Below, one piece after another: positions 9,008 to 10,471 of a stretch of 10,759 nucleotides of DNA; the stretch's first letter is position 1; each line of letters starts with the position of its first letter. Origin of the DNA: Chlamydiales bacterium (GTDB taxonomy: Bacteria > Chlamydiota > Chlamydiia > Chlamydiales > JBDQID01); the NCBI GenBank assembly GCA_047611865.1, contig JBLFWS010000113.1, positions 1-10,759 on the forward strand. The letters run 5' to 3'. The translations under genes were made by a program, and so were the position numbers. The notes beneath the pieces were generated by a model. That model was not told the DNA's origin. It was given only the letters and a program-made list of their open reading frames with translations, and did not search any database.

Positions 9008-10471
9008 ATGCCCTATTATTCACTTCAACCAATGGCAGCTCCTCATGACTTCCTACACATACAACAAGCTCAAGCCTCTGCAGCTCCCATAACTTACACC
9101 CAAGCATGCCCAGCTGTATCAAGGCTCACTTATCAGCCCACACATTATATGTCTCCTTCAGTAAGGGCAGCCCCACCAGCATTCACAGCTTCACCAATGG
9201 CCATGCAACCAAGAATTTCACCAACAAGAGTTTCTTACCCATATTTTGCCCAAACTAGACTGCCCACCCCACAGCCGGTAGTGAATCCTCATGTTGCTAA
9301 AATATCTGAAATTCAAAACTCCATTTGCGCTATCCAAAATTCCCCAGAAGGAATATCTGGTACAAATCTCCAAAGAATTAACGAATTGAGTGCTAAAATC
9401 GCCGACCACCAGTCTAAATGTTATTCAGCACGAGAATATGGCCAAGGTGATGTATATAGACAAATTCAGGAAAGCTTTCAATATGTTGTAAACTCTCTAG
9501 CGACACTTATTCAGCTACCACCCAGGGCCACAACTTATCAGGCAGCTCCAATATATGTACAAGCAGTAGATCCAGAACCCTCCTGTATGTATAGAACTTT
9601 CTCAGAAGCTTCTACTTCAGTAAGGTCGCCAACAGAAACCCCACCTCAATCACCTGCTGTTAACCCAACAAGAACTCAATATGCTTCGGCAAGCACAGCA
9701 AATACTCCAATGGATAAAGCTATTGCTGTACTTCAGAATCGTGGAATAGCCATTCAGAGGCAAGAGTGGCTAACAGGATTCAATGGAGGACAAAATGACG
9801 GAATCGCGAAAATTCATACTAACCAAGGTGTTTTCTTTCTAAAGATCCTCAAACAGGATTCCCGTACAGCGGAAACGATCACAAGGCTAAAAACTTTGAA
9901 AAGTCGTTTACCAGAGATTCTTAAGCACGGTAGCAATAGACAGGGACTTCCCCAAATTGTTCATCCCATCGCTGCCGACGACAATTGGGTACTTTTACCT
10001 GGAGCGAAAGGTCTCTGTGTAAACGAACTCATCAACGATCGTAATATTTCCGTTGAGGAGCAACAAGAAATCGTGCGCCAAGTAAGTCAGTCTCTCGAAA
10101 AACTTGATGACTTAGGATGGAGGCATGGTGATGCCAACACAATGAATATTTTCTATGATCGAAACTCCCGATCTGTTCACCTTATTGACAATGATTGTCT
10201 ATACGACCAGCGTCAAGGTAACGGATTTCGAATTCCAAAAAAAGATCCTGATGGATTTAGAGAAAGCCTCAAAATAGTGGGAAAGGGCCATCTAATCCAA
10301 CAAGCTCCTGCCCTTCCCACTTGTGTAGGTGAAATCTATGAAAGAGTTGTTCCAGCCCACAACCCTTATCTTATTAATAGATCAGCTTCAAACTATGCAG
10401 TATCGGAAAGGGCTTTAAAATCCCTTGCTCTTTATGGGCGTGCAGGTTCAAGTCCTGTTCCGATCAACTAA
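9008..10471 (+). CDS. Kinase-like (APH/RIO/Kdo-type fold) protein with low-complexity N-terminus; putative secreted effector
   Basis: First ~235 aa are rich in P/A/S/T/Q/Y. Then a Gly-rich loop GFNGGQNDG, VFFLK, catalytic loop HGDANTMNI and metal-binding LIDND. Confidence 0.8.
   Translation: MPYYSLQPMAAPHDFLHIQQAQASAAPITYTQACPAVSRLTYQPTHYMSPSVRAAPPAFTASPMAMQPRISPTRVSYPYFAQTRLPTPQPVVNPHVAKISEIQNSICAIQNSPEGISGTNLQRINELSAKIADHQSKCYSAREYGQGDVYRQIQESFQYVVNSLATLIQLPPRATTYQAAPIYVQAVDPEPSCMYRTFSEASTSVRSPTETPPQSPAVNPTRTQYASASTANTPMDKAIAVLQNRGIAIQRQEWLTGFNGGQNDGIAKIHTNQGVFFLKILKQDSRTAETITRLKTLKSRLPEILKHGSNRQGLPQIVHPIAADDNWVLLPGAKGLCVNELINDRNISVEEQQEIVRQVSQSLEKLDDLGWRHGDANTMNIFYDRNSRSVHLIDNDCLYDQRQGNGFRIPKKDPDGFRESLKIVGKGHLIQQAPALPTCVGEIYERVVPAHNPYLINRSASNYAVSERALKSLALYGRAGSSPVPIN
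10401..10466 (+). pseudogene. tRNA-Leu(TAA) fragment lacking a D-arm; att-site-like
   Basis: Anticodon arm AAGGG-C-TTTAAAA-T-CCCTT (TAA at 10416-10418). Long variable arm GCTC-TTTAT-GGGC. T arm GCAGG-TTCAAGT-CCTGT. Acceptor 3' strand TCCGATC plus discriminator A10466. No D-arm upstream. Confidence 0.85.

Follow-up and report, generated by a model that had tools for sequence, protein, structure and literature searches.

The window analysed here is a 10,759-nt stretch of DNA from a member of the Chlamydiales and comprises the entire contig C113 of a 272-contig assembly (genome label G000). Near its right end, an open reading frame (ORF) for a kinase-like protein runs into the 3' half of a tRNA-Leu(UAA) gene, which supplies the last codons of the ORF and is followed by a terminator and a short direct repeat. 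To the left, conserved core genes adjoin accessory DNA that carries an ankyrin-repeat gene and remnants of an insertion sequence (IS). The features of the window are listed in Table 1.

A base-by-base reading confirms that window positions 10414-10466 correspond to the 3' half of a tRNA-Leu(UAA) gene and cover tRNA position 32 through the discriminator. As the original prediction had stated, the variable arm, the T arm, the acceptor 3' strand and the discriminator are all present (10427-10466). The pentanucleotide AGGGC directly to the left of the anticodon loop still pairs with the 3' strand of the anticodon stem at four of five positions; the loop-closing pair is the C-T mismatch that had been pointed out before. 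Upstream of AGGGC the sequence is not tRNA-like, and no D-arm-like sequence is found in the whole window at up to 3 mismatches. ARAGORN reports 0 tRNA genes and Rfam 0 tRNA matches at E<=1 in the window, as expected because the fragment is only half a gene.

The similarity of the fragment to tRNA-Leu genes is far beyond chance. The best BLAST match is the tRNA-Leu(taa) of genome G132 (E 7.2e-21, 95% over 60 nt), whose intact gene is identical to the 53-nt fragment at 51 of 53 positions, followed by that of G022 (50/53). Near-identical copies of this 3' half, on whose existence the original prediction depended, are therefore present in relatives. The sole tRNA-Leu(taa) of the genome itself, on contig C45 (c[10,93]), is more distant (E 2.1e-7, 43/53). 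Its alignment with the fragment starts with 13 identical bases (TTAAAATCCCTTG). The variable arm of the fragment then differs from the C45 copy and is one base longer with pairing kept; after it, 25 identical bases precede a single acceptor-stem mismatch.

The predicted protein ends in AVSERALKSLALYGRAGSSPVPIN (longer C-terminal string SERALKSLALYGRAGSSPVPIN). The last ~22 codons had been regarded as tRNA-derived. The tRNA origin stands, given the identity with the G132 gene, and the number is lower: 17 codons lie wholly within the tRNA sequence (LKSLALYGRAGSSPVPI), or about 20 when the remnant of the stem and the codon with the discriminator are counted as well, and the first two residues of the proposed stretch, S and E, are not tRNA-derived. 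The stop codon at 10469-10471, 3 nt beyond the discriminator, is the first in-frame TAA.

Table 1 Features of the window, with strand and basis of assignment where given
Feature	Coordinates	Strand	Basis
Orphan kinase-like ORF, 487 aa, with tRNA-derived tail	9008-10471	+	Pfam, ESM Atlas
tRNA-Leu(UAA) gene 3' half, displaced-fragment type of attachment (att) relic	10414-10466	+	base-by-base reading, BLAST
Anticodon-stem 5'-strand remnant or look-alike AGGGC; left core half-site of att junction	10409-10413	+	
Anticodon loop TTTAAAA (anticodon TAA, 10416-10418)	10414-10420	+	
Anticodon stem, 3' strand	10421-10425	+	
Variable arm, 4-bp stem GCTC/GGGC with TTTAT between	10427-10439	+	
T arm	10442-10458	+	
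Acceptor 3' strand	10459-10465	+	
Discriminator A (A73)	10466	+	
Intrinsic terminator, 11-bp stem and T-run, directly after kinase stop	10480-10511	+	
Direct repeat TGTCCAAC-TCC-TGTCCAAC, 11-bp period	10527-10545	+	
Conserved core genes, outside the insert	1-5722	+	Pfam, synteny
folB	604-972	+	Pfam
SDR gene	974-1684	+	Pfam
495-aa gene	1681-3168	+	in 34/61 genomes of the order
TPR gene	3175-4602	+	Pfam
281-aa gene	4877-5722	+	in 19/61 genomes of the order
210-bp dispersed palindromic repeat (similar to a miniature inverted-repeat transposable element), start of accessory insert	5726-5935	.	
170-aa ORF within the insert, no family assignment	6365-6877	-	
Ankyrin-repeat protein, 607 aa, accessory or effector-like	6962-8785	-	Pfam Ank, E 1e-18
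IS terminal sequence, first 26-30 nt only, left of kinase block	8759-8788	+	
Solo 51-bp IS terminal sequence without IS interior, right of kinase block	10644-10694	+	

The N-terminal part of the kinase-like protein (~230 residues) is rich in proline and glutamine (P/Q), and a RIO/Kdo-like kinase domain begins at about residue 235. The assignment is marginal in Pfam: the Kdo family (PF06293) matches residues 345-394 with a score of 22.0 bits (cut-off 21.3; E 1.2e-4). HGD...N and IDxD motifs are recognizable by eye in comparison with P0003. In the ESM Atlas, the feature score is 0.97 and the structure reaches template modelling (TM) scores of 0.54-0.60 to RIO1/Kdo/Pkinase clusters, with a predicted local distance difference test (pLDDT) value of 0.57 for the Atlas model. 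A single-sequence AlphaFold2 model of residues 231-487 has a mean pLDDT of 41.3, which is too poor for judging the fold or the tail. No PF00589 (integrase) match is found in the ORF.

By all searches performed, the kinase gene is to be classified as an orphan. A word-based search returned only the protein itself among 7954 candidates, a search in six frames across 201 genomes of this order returned only its own genome, and a metagenome search with the locus yielded no relative. HMMER found nothing better than E 3e-4 among 1.84 billion representatives; two matches with E ~4e-4 cover the catalytic region only.

The homology to relatives is not limited to the tRNA sequence. In at least 15 genomes it spans the region from the anticodon loop past the TGTCCAAC repeats (~10408-10550) with 69-79% identity, and hairpins are found at the equivalent place after tRNA-Leu(TAA), where the counterpart in the window is the terminator with its 11-bp stem at 10480-10505; the hairpin spacer ahead of the repeat is variable. 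The double repeat, searched with at most 1 mismatch, occurs as a single copy per genome in 18 of the 201 genomes; a reversed control pattern matches in 5 genomes. Ten of the 18 loci follow an intact tRNA-Leu(taa) at a distance of 55-110 nt, and three, including the window, lie downstream of a tRNA-Leu fragment. One is located after a tRNA-Tyr gene and one after a tRNA-Tyr fragment (G055, G073). The remaining loci are found 230 nt after tRNA-Leu, upstream of tRNA-Leu and without relation to a tRNA (one each), so that 16 of 18 are downstream of a gene or fragment of tRNA-Leu(taa) or tRNA-Tyr. The stretch from 10414 to about 10550 is thus sequence that ends or follows tRNA-Leu(TAA) in this order. 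The kinase side (left) is the foreign side of the junction.

The double repeat marks the start of variable DNA behind tRNA-Leu(UAA), and sometimes tRNA-Tyr, and is a candidate binding site for a recombinase. Two arm-type integrase sites are conceivable, as is a site for a different recombinase or for a host factor; the repeat is absent from the integrase-bearing islands examined. A role of the TGTCCAAC repeat as a sigma-70 promoter was considered and rejected, as by eye only the repeats are conserved and a -10 region is not.

Across many chlamydial families the double repeat is near-invariant in the form TGTCCAAC-N3-TGTCCAAC (usually ATTTTGTCCAACCCCTGTCCAACTTTT), and the genes that follow it vary. 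Its place is almost always some 55-110 nt behind tRNA-Leu(UAA), the displaced fragment of this gene, or tRNA-Tyr. Further cases were seen at loci L051, L054, L058 and L071, beyond L026-L043. Behind the repeat, G136 carries a gene run of ~12 kb and G147 a shorter one (L086, L088, L027, L042). Judged by eye, these runs are of resistance or modification type, with class-D beta-lactamase-like, nucleotidyltransferase, acetyltransferase and SDR genes, and contain no integrase; Pfam confirmation was obtained for a single AadA-type gene, in G363. A recurring gene pair follows the repeat at L083 15639-16851 (G135), L087 13462-13917 (G073), L041 (G117) and L037 (G125). Its members are a coiled-coil protein of ~151 aa (3 genomes) and a protein of ~216 aa that starts with MS.GGGFCRAKTELRWMRFVDGEN (2 genomes). 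In G135 and G073, prophage-like DNA with terminase-like genes lies to the left of the pair, which is possibly a module for defence or addiction.

Window positions 10405-10632 were compared with 400 further genomes of the same order. Matches at E<=1e-6 were obtained in 86 of the 400 scored genomes (G000 included), and many genomes match twice, with one match starting in the anticodon stem (the gene) and the other in the loop (a fragment). Reading of the sequences revealed 11 relatives (G016, G011, G028, G132, G146, G110, G363, G075, G188, G084, G366) in which an intact tRNA-Leu(taa) is followed, at a distance of 1.1-13 kb, by one direct-repeat 3' fragment or by two; G110 holds two fragments in tandem. 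All of these fragments start at GA/CTTAAAATCCC (the slash marks the boundary), the same position as the fragment in the window, where homology begins at 10414/10415, within the anticodon loop, a recognised crossover sublocation.

A Pfam scan covered 53 of the 102 ORFs between and around the repeats, shorter or overlapping ones having been dropped. Full-length PF00589 integrases (352-369 aa) are encoded 90-450 bp after the tRNA in G132, G075, G188 and G084. The integrase is split in G162 and partial in G146 and G363; in G363, the gene is interrupted by an IS. Adjoining the integrases are DUF3987 or DnaB-like genes, or DUF927 and primase-zinc-ribbon genes. The cargo of the islands comprises ankyrin proteins, toxin-antitoxin and related genes (HigBA, HipA, AbiE) and an Ntox50 protein. 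A search for an integrase next to tRNA-Leu had been suggested; relatives carry one there, and in G000 an integrase of this family is found on a different contig, C209. The end of C209 encodes the N-terminal 225 residues of the protein, which is cut by the contig end and shares 59% identity with the G075 and 53% with the G084 integrase. C209 shows no overlaps with other contigs down to 55 nt. Elsewhere in the genome, C65, C54, C11 and C12 contain PF00589 matches, and C113 has none.

On C209 (1-2234), an AbiEi/AbiEii-like pair precedes the integrase. Such a pair is also found after the double repeat in G097 and after the displaced fragment in G084.

From these alignments and annotations, tRNA-Leu(TAA) is a recurrent target of tyrosine integrases in this chlamydial order. 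The layout in the relatives is the classical tDNA (tRNA gene)-island pattern with an anticodon-centred crossover, as outlined in part of the Islander article (PMC4383910). Environmental chlamydiae share a family of small tRNA-Leu(UAA)-targeting integrative elements with an integrase, primase/helicase-type modules, ankyrin and toxin-antitoxin cargo, and tandem stacking. The literature searches brought up no description of tRNA-Leu-targeting elements in chlamydiae.

The comparison with relatives also bears on the possibility that the fragment is not a scar at all and instead reflects chance or convergence, or a tRNA-like element with a function in the kinase mRNA. The variable-arm hairpin is indeed part of the minimum-energy fold, and the z-score of a 113-nt stretch including the terminator is -2.84. 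Nevertheless, such an origin is scarcely credible in view of E-values down to 7e-21, the 51 of 53 positions shared with a real tRNA-Leu gene, a boundary that coincides with the fragment boundary in 11 relatives, and a homologous flank that runs beyond the tRNA. In addition, no tRNA-like fold can form because the acceptor 5' strand and the D arm are missing.

Among 8 related islands, no gene of at least 90 aa enters the fragment, except for one overlapping 99-aa ORF in G110; with 0 of 8 islands showing a real gene that does so, read-through is not a feature of the family. In the window, one of the three forward frames is interrupted by a stop codon within the fragment and the other two are open. 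In the data given in part of the Islander article, 626 of 3919 islands overlap an annotated coding sequence (PMC4383910). Because two of three frames are open, the related islands lack the overlap and overlaps with coding sequences are common in Islander, the evidence suggests that the read-through is accidental. The tRNA-coded tail is most likely a by-product of the junction and not an evolved part of the kinase. For annotation this calls for caution, as a tRNA gene provided the tail, the stop codon and probably the terminator of an effector-like kinase.

The genomic context of the fragment differs from that in the relatives. The genes in the left half of the window, up to the 281-aa gene, are core genes, of which the 495-aa and 281-aa genes occur in the same order along the DNA of relatives. 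Five relatives have sequence that extends 2.5 kb or more past the 281-aa gene; in three of these, from different families (G031, G006, G037), fabI comes next on the opposite strand, at a distance of 0.1-1.6 kb. The fabI of G000 itself is on C131, a contig that shares a 127-nt overlap with the end of the window. Core genes up to 5722 on one side and fabI on the overlapping contig on the other delimit an accessory insert of ~6.5 kb between two core genes. In order, it contains the 210-bp repeat, the 170-aa ORF, the ankyrin gene, the kinase gene, the tRNA fragment with its flank and a second ankyrin gene (478 aa). Pfam and ARAGORN detect no integrase, excisionase or tRNA gene within the insert, and the base composition shows no clear shift across it.

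The 210-bp repeat has at least 70 BLAST matches at 80-96% identity within the genome. Its inverted arms are located at 5764-5804 and 5847-5887, and Rfam gives only sub-threshold miRNA-like hairpin matches for it. The kinase, the fragment, the terminator and the double repeat form a 1.9-kb block between two IS-end remnants. These constitute the direct repeat D1 (8759-8788 and 10644-10673, 97% identity, same direction), and both match IS ends at many contig ends of G000, where the IS interior starts with AAAAACCTCTATAGGTGTGG. The word-depth of contigs at the IS end is ~20x that of the flanks. The contig break at the right end of the window is attributable to the IS end at 10644-10694.

The IS element is abundant, and many contigs of the assembly break ~75 nt inside it. 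Two further observations concern the left end of the window. A near-perfect hairpin of 60-70 nt (422-488) lies between the first two minus-strand ORFs; it has a sub-threshold Rfam miRNA match (E 7e-4, 35 bits vs a gathering score of 82) and probably represents a terminator or else a short palindromic repeat. Contig C269 adjoins the left end via a 127-nt overlap and, by eye, encodes fliP/Q/R-like flagellar or type-III export genes and csrA.

The intact tRNA-Leu(taa) on C45 is located behind the gene for GAPDH and the 'FTREPIIET' gene, in the conserved context known from relatives. The ends of C45 show no exact overlap with other contigs down to 21 nt, apart from a single 21-nt match of its far end within C45 itself. 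Synteny thus places the fragment away from the tRNA-Leu locus, at an ectopic site. A simple attR with an island extending leftward to the intact tRNA was rejected, since the core genes up to 5722 refute it. The original prediction had proposed an attR or attP of a tRNA-Leu-targeting element. An att-type relic with a crossover in the anticodon stem-loop is borne out by the 11 relatives with the same boundary, whereas an attR simply paired with its tRNA is not: the window contains neither tRNA-Leu nor an integrase, and its core locus is unrelated.

We interpret the junction, with a probability of roughly 0.6, as a relocated and probably inert att scar that stems from tyrosine-integrase recombination at the tRNA-Leu anticodon stem-loop. 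The tRNA origin of the fragment, the crossover position shared with relatives, a right flank homologous to theirs, the ectopic position and the scars of IS ends are all shown by the sequences. Recombination at the stem-loop would have produced a displaced tRNA-Leu 3' half that marked the end of an island. The junction, the terminator and the TGTCCAAC repeats would have formed at a tRNA-Leu locus. The lineage may have been a different one, given that the fragment, with its foreign-type variable arm, is closer to the tRNA-Leu genes of other families. An IS- or repeat-mediated rearrangement then most likely moved the junction into the accessory insert. As the kinase has no stop codon of its own before the junction, translation would continue across the tRNA remnant until the first in-frame TAA, and transcription would end at the former tRNA terminator. 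We infer the order of these events and the use of the terminator as well as the inactivity of the site, which most likely is no longer recombined.

The same features could have arisen by integration at a secondary site. In that case, the kinase gene would have been resident, and an element whose attP comprised the tRNA-Leu 3' half, the terminator and the TGTCCAAC repeats would have entered a look-alike of the anticodon stem-loop at the 3' end of that gene. This would make the junction one of the attL type, with the element to the right and largely deleted since then through IS activity, and the kinase would have lost its native C-terminus. In the relatives, the unit of tRNA 3' half, hairpin and TGTCCAAC repeats does form the left, tRNA-proximal end of variable DNA, and its presence beside tRNA-Tyr (G055, G073) suggests an element-borne arm. 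Moreover, the junction AGGGC/TTTAAAA resembles the target AGGGA/CTTAAAA, the locus is not a tRNA locus, and the repeats are only 98 bp away from an IS-end scar. We nevertheless consider this course of events unlikely. The kinase, both ankyrin genes and the 170-aa ORF are missing from the locus in relatives, so that the supposedly resident side is itself inserted DNA. The right side shows no element body, integrase or second junction, only the 478-aa ankyrin gene before fabI. Finally, ~60 residues separate the metal-binding motif from the tRNA-coded part, and the kinase domain need not be truncated.

Several points weigh against a relocated and inert scar. The kinase has no homologues that would show its native C-terminus. 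Two of the five relatives with sufficient sequence (G026, G020) lack fabI after the 281-aa gene, and the join of C113 and C131 is a 127-nt overlap that contains the IS end, with only 65 nt of unique sequence beyond the repeat. The assembly is fragmented, and C45 ends 9 nt past the tRNA. The remaining points concern the activity of the site. A 10-nt string, TATGCAGTAT, is common to the 3' end of the kinase gene and the right end of the G363 island; this string or the preserved AGGGC could be a genuine, possibly usable P-arm. The 13-nt (TTAAAATCCCTTG) and 25-nt blocks of identity with the tRNA-Leu of the same genome are enough for the overlap region of a tyrosine recombinase. The family integrase encoded on C209 is cut by the contig end and may be intact.

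The latter findings would fit a working attP or attR at which an integrase of the C209 type recombines with tRNA-Leu(taa) and thereby swaps the tail and the terminator of the kinase. Both flanks resemble element ends, as in the string shared with G363, and by eye no stop codon would interrupt the kinase frame in the C45 copy before the contig ends. Since the variable arm of C45 is 1 nt shorter, the tail would change on recombination. The earlier expectation that recombination would exchange the kinase tail is thus logically correct; nothing, however, shows that the site is still active. A live site appears rather improbable, given that neither an integrase nor an excisionase is encoded within the insert, that the two copies differ at 10 of 53 positions, and that the site lies between core genes, so that an exchange with the tRNA locus would lead to deletion or inversion of parts of the chromosome and not to excision of an element. 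In Logan contigs from three runs labelled as ice metagenome (X1-X3), one of which may be the source sample, 9000-10671 is contained in a single contig with no differences and no joint at the att site; as contigs drop rare variants, this is uninformative on excision. It is very improbable that a usable attP-like site lets a secreted kinase-like effector alternate between two versions of its C-terminal tail and of its terminator. Such a switch, if true, would parallel, in a bacterial cargo gene, the archaeal arrangement with an att site inside a gene.

The archaeal arrangement is that of the SSV-type 'suicidal' integrases, in which a tRNA-derived att site lies inside the integrase gene and which occur in Archaea only, according to a passage of a review (PMC8371274). 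The window shares with the systems portrayed there a tRNA-derived att core within a coding sequence, where recombination would change the gene end. In the SSV type, however, the integrase gene itself is concerned and the design is conserved and functional, whereas here a kinase-like cargo gene of a bacterium is affected. The related chlamydial islands show no overlap of gene and fragment, and the arrangement in the window therefore looks accidental, unlike the SSV design.

With regard to the protein, the kinase ORF resembles the RIO/Kdo (WaaP) families (PF01163, PF06293) in the Kdo match over the catalytic region and in the HGD...N and IDxD motifs, and differs from them by the P/Q-rich N-terminal extension of 230 residues and the tRNA-coded tail. 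With regard to mobile DNA in environmental chlamydiae, a genomic island has been described in Protochlamydia amoebophila UWE25, which we take to be the one named Pam100G. Like the elements described here, it is associated with short direct repeats, which flank the island; in the portion of the source concerned, it is ~100 kb in size and conjugative, with F-like tra genes and 17-bp repeats (PMC548262). The chlamydial tRNA-Leu elements, by comparison, are 1-13 kb long, carry an integrase and primase/helicase-type modules and target tRNA-Leu(TAA).

The closest parallel is provided by the tDNA islands collected in Islander. In the figures given in part of that article, 2083 of 3919 islands have an anticodon-centred site and 125 tandem arrays are counted (PMC4383910). 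As in the islands outlined there, the 3' tDNA fragment of the window starts at the anticodon stem-loop, and the relatives show the regenerated tRNA, the integrase, the cargo, the displaced fragment and sometimes a tandem arrangement (G110). Islander looks for the cognate tDNA upstream in the same orientation, on one replicon and separated by nothing but island DNA, and for an integrase within the interval; at the window, neither is found. Unlike the islands in the same part of the article, the window fragment is separated from its tRNA, which lies on another contig, and it is found between IS-end scars in a core locus that is not a tRNA locus; its interval contains no integrase, and its sequence is closer to the tRNA-Leu genes of other families than to that of its own host. 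The object is thus of a known kind, a displaced tDNA fragment of a tyrosine-integrase island; it is unusual in being stranded at a non-tRNA locus, in its foreign sequence type and in forming the end of a coding gene. As a scar of a textbook kind it carries little weight alone, and the chlamydial element family and the double repeat to which it leads are the more useful result.

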